Shown piece after piece: positions 16-6,986 of a stretch of DNA of 64,000 bases. The notes beneath the pieces were generated by a model, which was not told where the DNA came from, did no database searches, and saw nothing but the letters and a program-made list of their open reading frames with translations. The position numbers were made by a program, and so were the translations under genes. The stretch's first letter is position 1. The number at the start of each line of letters is the position of its first letter. Origin of the DNA: Guillardia theta CCMP2712 (lineage: Eukaryota > Protista > Cryptophyta); assembly GCF_000315625.1 (NCBI RefSeq), contig NW_005434648.1:62001-126000 (forward strand), given 5' to 3'.

Positions 16-3000
16 ATGGTGGTTTATGGTCGGAGACATGCTGCCCTCGTCCTGCTGGTGCGATGAATACCATGCTATGCTATCCTCCTGACTGCTGTAT
101 CCTATGCTATGCTGTCCTCCTGCCTGTTGTATCCTATGCTATGCTGTCCTCCTGCCTGTTGTATCCTATGCTATGCTGTCCTCCTTCCTCTTTTTCTGCC
201 AGTCCTCTTCTGTTTCCTCTTCTATCTTCTTTTATCGTTTCAATGATCCCGCCTCCGCTGCACTCCGATTCCTTCACCACCTTTCTGCTTGTTCCCTTGC
301 CTTTTCTTTGTTTGCTTCTTTCCTGTGTTTTCCTTTATCTTTTATGGACCTGCCGAAATACATCTGATCCTTTTCTTGTTTAATCTAGATGATTTGTAGT
401 AGTTGTGGTACATGCTCCCATGGATTCAAGCGACTGGGGTCAACGAAACTTTGCGAGGGTTTCATGTTCTGTCCTTCATTCCTCTTCAAAGGCACGCGTG
501 TCATACCTGCAGGGCTCAACATGTGCAGGGCTGGTTCGAGGTAAGCACCAAAGGGATTGTCATGATGTAATCTGGAATCTTAGTGAATTACACGAAGCTG
601 AAAAAAGAATAATGGAAATGGAGAAAACTATTAGACAGCAAGCCATGAAAATTCAAGAGCTCGAACACCTACTGGTTGAGAATAGCATGGTGGACGGAAA
701 GGTACCCTCGTTTATCATTCAACTCGTGCATGCTAACGGGTGTACAAGAGAGGGATTGCCTCGTCCGATGAGAGTCAAAGCGTCGATGAGAGGTTTTGGA
801 ACGCATCAGACTTGAGGAGGTTTTACTCCAGCAAGCCGATTGGGTTCATAAGGACTTGCTTTCCGACCAAGAACGGCTGCCCCCGCCAAGGAAATCTTGT
901 ATGAAGGCAGATGCTATTTCACCGCCGCTCAATCAATGAGTTGCAGGCTCCAACCTCTCTCGCGAAGCTACGAGTTCACTTTGGTTCGAACCCGACGCAC
1001 AGGCGAGTGAGCTGACATCAGCAGTTACTGCTCGCTCACTTTCTTGTTCAGCTTGGACGGCTTGGCTGACTTCTCGCACCTCTGGGTGTTTTTCGTGTTC
1101 CACCAGAATGAGAATGTGAGGGAGGCTCTTGCTCGACCCTCTTTGCCTTACTTTCATACCAAGTCAACTCCTAAGCCGAAAGTCTATCCTCCTCGCCTAG
1201 ACGGCAAGCCCAAGGTAAAGAGAGGGTAAGAAGACCCGCTGGTGTCAAGTAAGGGTGACCCTAGGGAGTGTTTGCCACCCGCTCTCCCCATCGACCCCAC
1301 CCGTTGGGGTTGACTCTCTCCAAGATCGACAAGGTGGAGCATGACGTGATCTACCTAAGCGGCGTGGATCTCGTCGATGGGACTCCGGTCAACCCCATGG
1401 TTCGCAAAGAGGAGGACTTACCTGGCTTCAGGTGATCGACATTAAGCCCTACATCGCCGTCTACGACTCTCCTCGACCCTCGGACGAAGTCTTTGCTCCG
1501 ACATGGTCTCTACCAGAGGGCAAGAGGGAGCTGCGCGTTGAGTTGAGTGAACAAGCTCTGATGGTCCTGCTGGCTGTGCCTGGTGACGAATGACTTGCAA
1601 GGACAGGACATCTTGGTGCTGGAGTCCAGCAGAGAAAGACCAGAGCACTTCTCGAGCTGGAGGGAAGCAGTTGCCGGGCTGCAGGAGATGCTGGCCTTGG
1701 ATCCAAGGTCAGCGTACAGGAGAAACAAGTGCCGAGATGTCGTCTATCCCGTCTACTACGATCGCTTGAACGTCTGTTGCAAGTTCCTTGACGCCGATGC
1801 AACTCACTCAGAGTCTGTCCAAGTCATGAACATCTCCTTGCGCCATGGCCCGACAGATAGAAGTCTTGCTGCAAGTCTGGAGCCACTTGAGGAGCCTGGA
1901 GCGCAAGTTGCCGATGAAAACCTCAACGCGCGGAGGAGGAGAGACGGTCGAATGGATCTGAACTTCAGCGAGATTTCAGTGAAGGCAGGCACGCGGCTCC
2001 CTGACGCACTCTTCTCCTCCTTTCCTCAGTTCTTTCCGTCACTTTCCTCGGCTCGAAAAGCAATCCGTCGTAGAGAGGTGAAATGAGCAGTCTATGTCTT
2101 CTTCTCTCTGTTCCTCCCTCCTCGTCTTGCCTTACCCTTCCTTGTCATGTTCTTGTCTGTGCGTTTGTATTTGCCATGCCTTGTCTTCTGTGCCGAGCTT
2201 CTTCCTCACTTCTGTTCGTTATGTCGTTCTCCAAGCAGATTCTCTGCAACAACCGAATAGCAACTTGCGGCACAGCGCTCGAGCAAGGAGACCGGATCTC
2301 CATGTTGCCCAGGAAGGAGAGGGACAGGACGAGGATTCCCAGAAGCAGGAGTAAGAGAAGCGAACAGTCGATGTCGTCTCATTGCCTCACAGGCTCACCC
2401 GTCAGGCATCGCTCGCCAAGCAACGAGGTGAGGGAGACAGAGGAATTTAGTTGATCGACTTCCCTTCTCACCTCTTCGCAAGTTGATTGCTCTCGTTGTT
2501 CGCTGCATGGCGTCTCTCAGTCGCGCAAGTCTTCGCAGGTCTTGTGCTCTCTCCTCTCCTTCCTGAAGTCGTGCGGGCAGAAAGCCGCGGGTTCTCTTCC
2601 TGGACGACGAGCTTGTTGTAGTCGAGAAACCAGAGTGAGCTGAGCCGCGTGAGACCCGAAAAGCTAAAGACAGAGTCACGTCAGACACCTCCCAACAACG
2701 TTTCCTCGCGGCATTGAAGGCGCAAGACGGAGAGCAACAAGCGAGCACACAGATCTCACAACGTTTGTGACTGAAACCCTCCAGGCAAAGCGCTTCTCAC
2801 TCCTCTCAGTCCTCTCCTCTCATCCTCTGAATCCTTCTCACTTCGTCTTTCTCCTTCCTCTTGCCTTCTCTCACAAGTGCATGTCCTGTTGTTGCATGTC
2901 GTGTCATTGTCTGCTCAGGCCAAGGGGTTCACAACAGACTTCATCGCGCCTTGTCATCGACTTGACAGCGCTACTGGAGGGCTCGTCGTCTTCGCGAGGT

Positions 3001-3759
3001 GAGGATGTGTCAGAGGAGGCACGTGCACATCACCTCCTGCAGGTCAAGACAAGCGGCTTTCAGGATATCTCAGCAGTTTGAGGATCGAGCCATCGGGAAG
3101 GAGTACCTGGCGGTGACTGCTGCGCTCCCAGCTGCGCTCCTCTAGTTCCTTGTCACCTCAGCATTAGGTCGTCGTCGGGGACGCTTCTCGGTATGGACTC
3201 GTGGGAACCATCGACAGAGAGATCGACGGCAAGTCAGCGATCACCAACTTTCAAGGTGAGCATGTCTGATCTTGTTGCTGCCTCATTTCTCTTGCCAGTC
3301 TTGTCTGTACGCTCGAGTCGCAGGTGTGCGTCGTCAACCTCCTCGCTGTGAGTCTTACTAGTCTCATCGTCAGGTATGGCAAGGTCACTCTTCTCCTGCT
3401 GCGTCCGCAAACAGGGAGGAGGCATCAGCTCCGGATTCATCTCTCGCAGTTGGGACATCCGATCCTCGGGGATGACAAGTACGGGGTCTCACTCGCTCAC
3501 TCGCTACTCGCTGGTCGCTCTCAGTGGCTCCTGCAGCCGTCGGGCGACGTTTGAGAGCTTCACCTGCGTCCTCCAGCTGATTCTTGCCCAGCAGGTACCC
3601 AGCAAGGTTCAGTGGGTGGACTCGAAGGCTTTGAGCAGGGAGGAGGCGCAGCTGCTGCTTTGGGCCTCCAGGCTGAGCCTGCGACATCCAACTACGAACG
3701 AGGAGCTGGAGTTTGAGTCTCGAGCGCCTCCGAGCTTCCATGAGGGCGACAGCAAGTGA
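16..3759 (+). CDS. Multi-exon fusion protein: possible N-terminal signal peptide + coiled coil + TrmO/TsaA (tRNA m6t6A37 methyltransferase) domain + S4-like domain + RluA/RluD-family pseudouridine synthase
   Basis: Spliced translation shows TrmO motifs KPIGFIRTCFPTKNGCPRQ (~835-890), LDGLADFSHLWVFFVFHQN, KVYPPRLDG, GVFATRSPHRPHPLGLT, GVDLVDGTP, IDIKPY and LALDPRSAY. The exon in ORF 1583-2086 continues into RLPDALF..SLSSARKAIRRRE (S4-like). Downstream exons give RluA motifs VLFLDDELVVVEKP, HRLDSATGGLVVFAR (HRLD 2955-2966), KEYLA, TGRRHQLRIHLSQLGHPILGDDKYG and LLLWASRLSLRHP. Confidence 0.85.
72..185. repeat. ~32-bp tandem repeat (ATGCTATGCTGTCCTCCTGCCTGTTGTATCCT), about 3.5 copies, inside the predicted first intron
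   Basis: Direct repeats visible in sequence; they explain the repetitive ORFs 63-383 and 104-367. Confidence 0.85.
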
Positions 3760-4237
3760 CCCCATAGCCTTCGCGACTTATATTAAGATCACCGCTTCCA
3801 TGATGTTGAGCTTGAATACCGCATGCCCATGTTGTGTGTCTGCGCAGCTGCCGTGCTACGGTGACTCTCGGAGTTGCGTGTATGCTCGTCTGGCGTGCGG
3901 GTAGTTATCTCTGACTCTGACTCTGACTCTGCCACCGGACTCTCACTCTGACCGTGGCACGCGGCGGCCCGGCGCTGCCCGTCCCTTCTCCCTTCTAACG
4001 TTTCTCTTGTAACTTTTCTCTCTTCATTTCCACTCTGTCACTTGTTTTAGCGAACGTCATTTGTTTTTTTGCATATCTTTTTTTTTTTAAAAAAACGTTT
4101 TTTTTCACTTTCCGACCCGGCTCGGGCTGTATGAGTCGAATTTCAGAAGTTTTGAATTCGAAACTGCATGGTTTGTGACTTTTCACACGCCTGGCATGGC
4201 AGAGGAACGGAAGCGAGCCGAGGAGAGCTGAGAACCT

Positions 4238-6986
4238 GATGGATGTCCTCAGGCCTGTCTGACTCTCTTTGAGCTCATTTCAAGTTGCTACCTGGTTCAT
4301 TCCTTCCCTCCTCCTTTTCTCGCCTGTGCCTTCGACCTCTGGCGTCTTTGCAAAACAGAATGACCAGAAATGCGGATTCCTCTCCTCGAGTTCCTCTCTC
4401 CCTGTATAGTCCAGGGAAGGTGAACATCCTCCGGCATGGAGAAGATACGAAGGGATTCATCGCTTCCAGCAAGCAAATGAGCTCCAAGGGGACGGCTCAG
4501 AGCATAGAGTCTAAGGTCGCATGCTGCGTGCTGGAACTTTTACCCTGACTTGACATCAGAAGAGGCGAATAAGTCAACAACAACTGGCTGATGAAGAGCT
4601 GGTAATGCTTGCCTGCTTGAGCTGCTCTGCTGACTTCGCATCTAGATGAGACGACGACGAGCTGCCATGAAGCGTCAGGTATCGTCGTTCGTGCGAAGAT
4701 CAGACGATGCATGCGTGGAGCAGAGGAGCAAACAGAAGATGCGATACTGAAATTCCTCAAAACAGGCATTTCTCATACAACAAGCTAGCTCTGCATTTGC
4801 GAATTCAAGGTGCAAGAGATTTATCTTTCATGCCAAGTTCTTTCCCTCTCCTCCTCTAATTTACTTTTCAGCAGCTACAATTCCCATGGAGATGATCCAC
4901 CTCCTCGGTCATCATACCTGCTTGGCTCCATCCAGAAGGAAGTTCCCAGACAGACTGTCTTAGATCCGCTCGCCCTGACCGTCGGCGAGCAAGGTGAAAA
5001 GAGGAAGGAGAGCTCGAATACTGATCTCTTCGACAAGACGTGAAGCAGCGGACTTCGCCTCAGCCCTGTGCTCCTCCGACTCCTGCCTCGGTCAAGTACC
5101 CTCGGGTCTCTTTGCTGCTGGGAAGTTGGATGAACGAGGCAGCTGTTCATTGCCTGACACCAACAATGAGAGAGCAAAGCGGGGAGGACCTGAGAAACTC
5201 TGCTCTTGCCTCCCCTCTTCTCCCCCGTCTTGACGCTGCGAGTACTGCTGATGAGACTCCGCGATCAACGAGCAGAAGATTGATGGAGGACTACGCCACC
5301 CGGAAGAAAGCTCTCATAGACTCTCTTGTCTCCTCTCACTCCATCCCCTCATCCTCGCGCTCCCACGCTCCGCTGGTGCTGGACGTGTCTTGTCAAGAAG
5401 TCACGTCTTCCGCTCTCGCCTCCTCTTCCTCCTGTTCGTCAGGTCTCAACAGCTTTTGATGTGCTCAAGTGACATGCAAGACAGTCGCAATGAAGGATAG
5501 GAGGATCACGCAAGACCTGACGGAGCTGCTCGCGTTGGCATCGGGAGCCACCCGTACAAGATGACATCGTTTGACTTGAGCTGACGAGGAGGCTGCAGTC
5601 AATGCTCGAGGAGGGAAGGAGAGTGAGATCGCCGTTGAGCGTCGAAGATCATCCAAGAAATTTTCATCGAGGTTGCGGGCCTTTGATTCTTGTTCTCTCT
5701 TTTCTCCTCCTGCTCCACCTCTCCTCCTCTGACTTCTGTTCCTTGTACTTTGCCTGCAGTTCGCATGGTCGGCGGCTCACCGAGGAGATCTCGGAGTGTC
5801 TGAGGCTGTTTCAGTCCTCCTCCCTCCCCCCTGCGCTCTCGGCTGCCGAGAAAGAGGCTCTGCTGCCTCCCCGCCTGGTCCTCTCGTTTGCTCCCTCACC
5901 CTTCTAAACCGAACCCAGGGAGAGCAAGCCGAGGAGGCAAGAGCACAAGGCGGAGAGCAGATGAAGGAGGTCTGTGACGCGCAAGAGGGAGGAAGCGGTC
6001 GCCCTCGAGTGAGTCGGTTGCTTGAGAAGAGGAGGGAGAAGAACCAAATCCTGCCCAAGTCACTCCTCATCCTCCGATCTCCCGAGTCATCTGCACCAGT
6101 GTCCCATCTTTTGACTCCTCGCACAAGTCCAGAGGCAGAGGAGGGAGGAGACGACGTCCTCACGCCTCTTGCTTGCGACAAGTACTTGCAGCAGAGAGCG
6201 AGGAGAGAGCGAGCGAAGAAAGAAGTTCTACACAAGACCATCTGCATCAGACAGCAACAGAGGGACAGCAACGCGCCTATGCTCCTCACCAAGCCTCAAA
6301 AAGCCACCAACATCACCAACACCTCCCTCTCCTCGTTCCTTACGTCTTCTTCTGTAGCTGCCACCACTCGTTCTCCTTCCAAGCCAGACAAGGCAGCAGA
6401 AGGCATGGTCTCCTCGAGCAAGGCAGCAGAAGGCATGGTCTCCTCGAGCAAGGCAGCAGAAGGCATGGTCTCCTCGAGCAAGGCAGCAGAAGGCATGGTC
6501 TCCTCGAGCAAGGCAGCAGAAGGCATGGTCTCCTCGAGCAAGGCAGCAGAAGGCATGGTCTCCTCGAGCAAGGCAGCAGAAGGCATGGTCTCCTCGAGCA
6601 AGGCAGCAGAAGGCATGGTCTCCTCGAACAAGGAGCAAGTGTTGGGATCAGACAAGGTGTGGGAGGTGAGAGGTCACGAGCAAGTGACAGACAGTCAGGT
6701 GAAGGCAGACGGGGACGTGAAGACCAAAACGAGACTTCTGCTGCTGAGCAGCGAAACCAACGAGCTCAACATGTGCCAACCGCAACTGAAGATCCGACAG
6801 AGTCGAGGAATGTGGAGGAGGAGGAGGAGGAGGAGGAGGAGGAGGAGGAGGAGGAGGAGGAGGAGGAGGAGGAGGAGGAGGAGGAGGAGGAGGAGGAGGA
6901 GGAGGAGGATGTATTTGTTGCGGTGGTGGATATGGGGTGGGGAGGGAGATGGGTGGGTGAGAAGAGGATTGCTTGGAATGGTGTAG
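4238..6986 (+). CDS. Multi-exon hypothetical protein with a low-complexity, repeat-containing C-terminus
   Basis: Series of exon-like segments separated by short GT..AG introns, ending in the long ORF 5796-6986 with SKAAEGMVSS repeats. No recognisable domain; boundaries uncertain. Confidence 0.4.
6389..6630 (+). repeat. 30-bp tandem repeat x8 (AAGGCAGCAGAAGGCATGGTCTCCTCGAGC), in frame as KAAEGMVSSS
   Basis: Near-perfect head-to-tail copies with no spacers. Confidence 0.95.
6813..6909. repeat. (GGA)n trinucleotide microsatellite, about 30 units
   Basis: Seen directly. Confidence 0.95.

Follow-up and report, generated by a model that had tools for sequence, protein, structure and literature searches.

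Does a single gene of Guillardia theta encode two RNA-modifying enzymes on one polypeptide and, if so, where and on which RNAs would they act? The question is raised by a locus in a 64,000-nt stretch of strain CCMP2712 (GCF_000315625.1, contig NW_005434648.1, positions 62,001–126,000 of the forward strand), called here the window, to which all positions below refer. A first-pass annotation had proposed that TrmO, which methylates N6-threonylcarbamoyladenosine at position 37 (t6A37) of tRNA to give N6-methyl-N6-threonylcarbamoyladenosine (m6t6A), is fused here to an S4-bearing pseudouridine synthase of the RluA family. The locus is an intron-rich eukaryotic gene in which TrmO_N, TrmO_C and PseudoU_synth_2 are matched in this order by exon-sized frames on the + strand. 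The fusion is real: a single spliced gene encodes both enzymes on one chain, and spliced contigs in all three contig runs span it, with one 759-aa frame in the spliced model. The gene and its general splice features are as follows.

16–3759, + strand: whole gene (21 coding exons separated by 20 introns), encoding 773 aa if the start is ATG16; the first exon and its intron are predicted
389–540, 584–701 and 749–898, + strand: spliced-in exons with which the gene extends upstream of 830, from contigs
1003–1051 and 2785–2918, + strand: the two GC-AG introns among the 20, from contig joints

Half or almost half of the sequence words occur in ten of the 20 listed sequencing runs, a pattern resembling spliced RNA; the runs are presumed to be RNA, none being registered as such. 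In the three runs with contigs (X1, X4 and X6, from studies P1, P3 and P4), one contig covers the full gene without introns; these contigs measure 2315, 2386 and 2360 nt, respectively, span window positions ~388 to 3794–3826, show no extra letters and no gaps in the displayed pieces, and skip introns with GT-AG or GC-AG ends. Fifteen of the 20 exon joints were displayed and were slid to canonical splice ends, while the intron at 3549–3591 was taken from the contig piece table and those at 3113–3167, 3256–3298 and 3324–3373 were chosen among candidate sites. The resulting 19-intron model of 389–3794 is exactly 2315 nt long, the length of the X1 contig, and contains one frame from ATG389 to TGA3759 (759 aa). 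Model residues 61–759 are identical to the G. theta UniRef entry A0A7S4N3A8 (P0001) and residues 26–759 to a JGI/IMG record (P0087); both records possibly derive from the same data as the runs, so that they confirm the splice choices and add no independent samples. A raw-read run (X17, ~6% read), from which five reads were placed, gave no evidence for or against a single transcript. The start at 830 given in the first-pass annotation has to be abandoned, since the three exons listed above are spliced in and a further exon ending at 57 is predicted.

Two public records depart from this model. The genome model GUITHDRAFT_106721 (P0358, 640 aa; window 389–3759) is mis-spliced and is devoid of the CPRQ, RSPHRP and GRRHQLR motifs and of the leader. 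UniRef record P0086 (645 aa) fits a retained last intron (3549–3591), and its protein stops before the final conserved strands of the synthase core.

The transition between the two halves is contained in one exon.

1607–2077, + strand: junction exon of 471 nt, with the TrmO C-terminal domain, linker and N-terminal half of the S4-like domain, and no stop
1564–1606 and from the donor at 2078, + strand: introns before and after the junction exon, from contigs
1853–1960, + strand: linker of ~36 aa, within the junction exon
1982–2304, + strand: divergent S4-like domain, split by the intron at 2078–2238

The single-exon junction had been recognized correctly; it runs from DPRSAY through the linker into the S4-like segment without a stop, and only its bounds (1583–2086) are replaced by those of the real exon. 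As no stop interrupts it, the locus cannot make a normally ending TrmO; retention of the intron that follows would bring a stop inside the S4 segment. The linker is acidic over its first two-thirds, ends in a basic stretch and is modelled with low confidence. Changes affect 7 of 36 linker residues; in the domains on either side the figures are 5 of 82 and 1 of 39. Selection on the linker was considered and set aside, as an open frame after seven substitutions could be due to chance; it is not counted as evidence.

The first half of the chain has the features of an intact TrmO.

824–1855, + strand: TrmO half, with the TrmO_N barrel at 875–1467 and the C-terminal domain with DPRSAY at 1700–1717
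887 (Q), 1280 (R), 1367 (D) and 1444 (K), + strand: S-adenosylmethionine (SAM)-binding residues, from alignment to E. coli TrmO

The TrmO_N/UPF0066 barrel (PF01980) scored 134.5 against a cut-off of 26.8 and the TrmO equivalog TIGR00104 scored 120.9 against 93.25. Pfam TrmO_C reached 21.0, below its cut-off of 27.1, and the stand-alone relatives P0002 and P0215 scored 18.2 and 19.4. Alignment revealed that the SAM-binding residues Q25, R92, D125 and K136 of E. coli TrmO correspond to Q77, R143, D172 and K183 in P0001, while D194, R196 and Y199 of the C-terminal DPRxxY motif correspond to D254, R256 and Y259 (D254-P-R256-S-A-Y259); all are kept. All six E. coli residues tested by mutation are preserved, and two of the motif residues, D194 and R196, are needed for activity in that enzyme (PMC4132733). 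The best structural matches of this half are solved TrmO/YaeB structures. A quick 46-row tree makes it the sister of P0002, the Rhodomonas-cluster protein (89), within a 7-row clade (98) located among eukaryotic TrmOs and not with that of E. coli. Substrates of TrmO are t6A tRNAs with U36, namely tRNA-Thr(GGU) in E. coli and tRNA-Ser(GCU) in humans (PMC4132733).

The second half combines an S4-like segment with an RluA-family core.

2531–3759, + strand: RluA-family catalytic domain, with HRLD at 2955–2966, Tyr at 3104–3106, GRRHQLR at 3414–3434 and the stop TGA at 3757–3759

PseudoU_synth_2 (PF00849) passed with 94.6 against a cut-off of 26.8. Residues R62, D64 and Y96 of E. coli RluA correspond to R512, D514 and Y546 in P0001, the GRxHQ motif to G600–R606, and all are kept, so that the key motifs are intact in both halves as had been claimed. 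In a structure model of this half, the predicted local distance difference test (pLDDT) is mostly >90 in the core, which matches RluA (2i82_C; Z 25.7, root-mean-square deviation 2.6, 199 residues aligned), tied with RluC chains. The S4-like domain is likely real but divergent: Pfam S4 gave 14.2 against a cut-off of 22.8, whereas a custom 20-row S4 profile gave 5.9 bits at residues 348–401 compared with 1.6 for the best of 300 shuffles, replacing an earlier 4-row profile that was barely above shuffles (2.1 versus 1.2 bits). The segment is modelled at pLDDT 92–95, and structural alignments to the S4-bearing RsuA and RluF start at residues 349 and 346. Domain profiles on the spliced protein, suggested as a check by the first-pass annotation, are therefore passed for TrmO_N and PseudoU_synth_2 and missed for S4 and TrmO_C. 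A single-sequence fold of the whole protein was unusable (pLDDT 32.7), and a joint alignment of both families, which mis-aligned the synthases (~13% identity), was dropped.

By profile and tree comparison, the second half is no orthologue of RluA, RluC, RluD or TruC, and it stands beside an uncharacterized group of S4-bearing proteins with a short loop. The equivalogs for RluA (NF007543, 62.1 versus 286), RluC (61.5 versus 378), RluD (70.7 versus 351) and TruC (84 versus 328) were not reached. The subfamily TIGR00005 was also missed (129.2 versus 192.7), as it was by eight of nine stand-alone relatives tested. The half is equidistant from E. coli RluA, RluC, RluD and TruC (52–59 bits); a FastTree tree of 93 rows sets it outside their clades, as a long branch whose place is unsure. 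Unlike in RluA, an S4-like segment is present. The distance from HRLD to GRxHQ is 89 residues, mostly 85–90 in its group and 95–108 in the E. coli enzymes. The best matches, ~30–37% identical, are of two kinds: bacterial proteins of about 295 aa, among them one named Winogradskyella, and N-terminally extended eukaryote-like proteins, the latter including the stand-alone relatives P0094, P0075 and P0128. The nearest genome loci of the bacterial relative P0093 belong to Bacteroidetes, and the atlas neighbours of this half are oomycete, haptophyte and bacterial clusters. Since the half is not an orthologue of the four E. coli enzymes, complementing those mutants may fail even if it is active. As a separate observation, the short-loop S4-RluA-like group (P0093–P0135, P0094, P0075, P0128) is broad, ~10 residues shorter in this loop, comprises bacteria and algae-like eukaryotes, and lies below every equivalog cut-off tested.

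The fusion looks lineage-restricted: within the databases searched, it was seen in records of G. theta and in a single 91%-identical exon and nowhere else. Both Pfam domains were found in one of 85 matches of 384–1224 aa, namely P0001 itself (7995 candidates scored), and the exhaustive protein search comprised the best 150 of 42175. Both halves were matched in 4 of 357 proteins, three G. theta records and P0213; the genome model P0358 also has both. P0213, the 91%-identical 163-aa product of an exon on an ENA contig, likewise reads on across the linker and into the S4 segment. Fused relatives can hide where a cluster is represented by a fragment, as P0213 represents one to which the 640-aa P0358 belongs. 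No record named Hanusia turned up. The Rhodomonas-cluster TrmO P0002, annotated as complete at 390 aa, ends at the C-terminal domain and is unfused, and in four metagenome loci (L002, L004, L007, L011) TrmO ends in a stop after the C-terminal domain. Across 29 metagenome loci no synthase-profile match was better than E 0.47; the same search recovered eight exon pieces of the window's own gene, four of them at E <0.01. Locus L005 has no synthase match in the 4 kb downstream, and L001, L003 and L006 have too little downstream sequence to tell. Atlas searches returned only single-domain clusters, which shows neither novelty nor absence of the fusion. A bacterial origin of the pairing was rejected, with a trmO match in 0 of 21 prokaryote loci around P0093 relatives within <=4 kb and a positive E. 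coli control, in what is a weak test as most of the 21 loci hold distant relatives. The first-pass annotation would have given up the fusion had the architecture been common, transcripts been separate or no spliced frame joined the S4 segment to the HRLD exon; the architecture is not common in the databases searched, and neither of the other outcomes was observed.

Other sporadic fusions were seen among 16 proteins picked for length or multiple domains, some of which may be mis-calls. TrmO was joined to PrmC-like (P0074), HhH-GPD (P0081), ABC-3, nickel-insertion, RRM or PPR domains, and RluA-family synthases to a SAM methyltransferase (P0084) or a weak Bmt2-like match (P0082).

The location of the protein is addressed by its predicted N-terminal leader.

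16–57, + strand: predicted first coding exon, with a basic n-region and the start of a hydrophobic core, a signal-peptide-like leader
58–388, + strand: predicted first intron of 331 nt, from contig leftover bases
389–523, + strand: rest of the predicted bipartite leader, with a small-residue c-region, Phe at 425–427 and a transit-peptide-like stretch of 33 aa (5 K/R, 1 D/E)

Beyond 388 the X4 and X6 contigs extend by another 38 and 26 bases, the same numbers as their depth in the bin 1–154. Position 58 is the sole GT donor that follows a G and leaves enough room, and it is in frame with ATG16; this joint is one that we infer and that was not displayed. The frame is open up to window base 1, so the gene may begin before ATG16. 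With this exon the leader reaches a 9-residue hydropathy of 3.12, compared with 1.89 without it. The Rhodomonas-cluster TrmO has a like layout (hydropathy 3.02, then Phe), and metagenome loci L001 and L002 also start with a hydrophobic leader, followed by Leu and not Phe after the likely cut. Phe at +1 after the signal peptide is a marker of plastid import in diatoms and cryptophytes (PMC4329603). The signal-peptide-like leader followed by Phe, overlooked along with the 5' exons in the first-pass annotation, suggests import into the plastid. Within the predicted first intron lies a 32-bp tandem repeat (3.7 copies, 95% matches; window 72–189).

Several cryptophyte-like stand-alone TrmOs (P0002, P0219, L001:~2850–3000, L002:~310–460) carry a signal-peptide-like leader and a coiled-coil-like stretch before the barrel. 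These leaders suggest organellar m6t6A beyond Guillardia.

Taken as a working model, to which we assign a probability of about 55%, the chain carries TrmO and S4-like/RluA-family domains that are likely both active, likely imported into the plastid by the one predicted leader, and likely independent of each other on different RNAs. The signal peptide and Phe-led transit peptide would carry the whole chain into the complex plastid. There the TrmO half, dimerizing as TrmO does, would use SAM to methylate N6 of t6A37 in an organellar tRNA with U36, most likely tRNA-Thr(GGU), while the second half would isomerize a uridine in an organellar stem-loop, most likely in 23S rRNA, through its S4-like domain. 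The 23S rRNA is proposed as the probable target because the S4-bearing RluC and RluD act on it (PMC12710931). The fusion is probably a recent event of the Guillardia lineage, in which a stand-alone S4-RluA gene would have been placed after trmO in the same reading frame and no longer have required its own leader; the fusion would persist as harmless or as sparing one leader rather than through coupling of the reactions. The lack of fusion in the closest TrmO relatives speaks against coupling being required.

Several points weigh against this model. Its leader exon is a prediction, and other cleavage points, with Thr, Ser or His at +1, would indicate the periplastid compartment. The second half is a long branch in the tree and contains three low-confidence insertions in the model. 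No cryptophyte stand-alone orthologue of it was found, the best relative being 37% identical, and the state before the fusion is itself a reconstruction. Moreover, that the plastid genome codes for tRNA-Thr(GGU) is our assumption, on which the literature search gave no paper. Finally, an S4 domain does not force an rRNA target, as the S4-bearing yeast Pus8 and Pus9 modify U32 of tRNA (PMC5699540).

The alternative that survives best, though we consider it improbable, is action outside the stroma, either on nucleomorph tRNA or rRNA in the periplastid compartment or, with translation from an ATG further downstream, in the cytosol. In its favour, the tree puts the TrmO half with eukaryotic TrmOs and not with that of E. 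coli, tRNA-Ser(GCU) is the substrate of human TRMO (PMC4132733), the nucleomorph possesses a set of tRNAs of its own (PMC13578239), Leu replaces Phe after the likely cut in L001 and L002, and the X1 contig starts at 389. However, the c-region is followed by Phe in G. theta as well as in the Rhodomonas cluster, and the nearest proteins to the second half are bacterial (one named from Bacteroidota), which would suit a 70S ribosome.

Slightly less probable again is coupling on one tRNA, in which the synthase would make pseudouridine (at 32, or at 31 or 38–40) in the anticodon arm of the t6A37 tRNA used by TrmO, with the S4-like domain serving both. The fusion does hold both active sites on one chain, yeast Pus8 and Pus9 with S4-like domains make Psi32 (PMC5699540), and the second half, ~10 residues short in the HRLD–GRxHQ loop (89 versus 95–108), may depart from the RluA consensus. 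A double modification of one anticodon loop had been the leading idea of the first-pass annotation, and it loses that place: bacterial RluA requires A36 (PMC12710931) and TrmO substrates have U36 (PMC4132733), the half is not an RluA orthologue, close TrmO relatives are unfused, and the linker is the part that changes fastest. With the same low probability, the protein would be the first natural enzyme writing m6t6A37 and pseudouridine on the same plastid anticodon arm, or linking tRNA and ribosome maturation, with a short-loop synthase that ignores the A36 rule; such a double-writing plastid enzyme would, if true, also provide evidence, for the first time, of m6t6A in a plastid.

Two further readings are less probable still, and equally so. 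A peptidase could cut the linker after import and free two enzymes; the linker is modelled with low confidence and ends in a basic stretch resembling the end of a transit peptide, and cleaved plastid polyproteins exist in other algae, but the first two-thirds of the linker are acidic and a similar basic stretch occurs at the same place in the stand-alone P0094, where it may belong to the mature synthase. Alternatively, one half may no longer be an enzyme and would serve only as an RNA-binding or ribosome-assembly module, for which the long branch and insertions of the second half, its TIGR00005 score and the shorter isoform record P0086, which keeps the last intron and loses the C-terminal strands, could be cited. 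Yet every catalytic residue checked is kept, and the TIGR00005 cut-off is also missed by most of the stand-alone relatives tested.

Two neighbouring genes joined by assembly or read-through are very improbable and already largely refuted: a contig over two genes does not alone prove a single transcript, and the evidence comes from contigs of presumed RNA runs rather than long reads, but the junction lies within one stop-free exon, so that a TrmO-only mRNA would reach the S4 segment before any stop, introns with GT/GC-AG ends are left out of the contigs, and the same open exon recurs in the 91%-identical P0213.

Comparison with known systems places the protein among natural two-enzyme fusions. 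RlmKL, a fused rRNA methyltransferase widespread among gammaproteobacteria, modifies adjacent sites in a single rRNA helix. It likewise has two RNA-modifying catalytic domains on one chain, whereas the Guillardia fusion unites different chemistries and appears limited to a single algal lineage. Yeast Pus8/Rib2, an S4-RluA-family synthase with a riboflavin-pathway deaminase (PMC5699540), is also a lineage-restricted two-enzyme fusion with no shown coupling; in Guillardia the partner is itself an RNA-modifying enzyme and is N-terminal. With TrmO/YaeB and human TRMO, class VIII SAM methyltransferases (PF01980, TIGR00104; PMC4132733), the protein has in common the barrel, the four SAM-binding residues and DPRxxY, and it adds the C-terminal synthase and the predicted plastid leader. 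RluC and RluD of 23S rRNA share with the second half an S4 domain (likely but divergent in the latter) before an RluA-family core, HRLD, GRxHQ and the fold, while that half is far below their equivalog cut-offs, outside their clades and shorter between the motifs. E. coli RluA (Psi32 of tRNA, Psi746 of 23S rRNA) shares the catalytic fold and residues; in contrast, it has no S4 domain and needs A36.

The fusion is apparently undescribed, although it is already deposited with both Pfam domains. The literature search, whose reach excluded subscription journals and supplements, found no description of a TrmO–pseudouridine synthase fusion, and the phylogenomic supplements of PMC4132733 or PMC8868631 could list it. 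The TrmO/YaeB literature searched did not mention Guillardia, and no report of m6t6A in a complex plastid turned up. The claim that the fusion was new thus holds for the literature and needs qualifying for databases: the records A0A7S4N3A8 and GUITHDRAFT_106721 both carry PF01980 and PF00849, unremarked, under the names 'TsaA-like domain-containing' or 'hypothetical', and both are without the leader.

Elsewhere in the window, run X1 holds a shallow 210-nt contig just downstream of the gene (3841–4050), and one of its records touches 3138–3155 and 2103–2126 with loose ends, probably from another locus with shared low-complexity sequence. A 30-bp repeat of 8.3 copies (99% matches; 6389–6637) and 32 GGA units (6814–6909) lie within a long open frame at 5733–6986. 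No tRNA genes were found in the window.

The locus corrects a public gene model and extends the small set of natural fusions between two RNA-modifying enzymes by a new pairing, one that is easy to test in E. coli; its narrow distribution limits the general weight of the fusion. Two wider implications may matter more. The second half indicates a widespread short-loop S4-RluA group outside the NCBIfam equivalogs tested, and the signal-peptide-type leaders of cryptophyte-like TrmOs predict m6t6A in a complex plastid.

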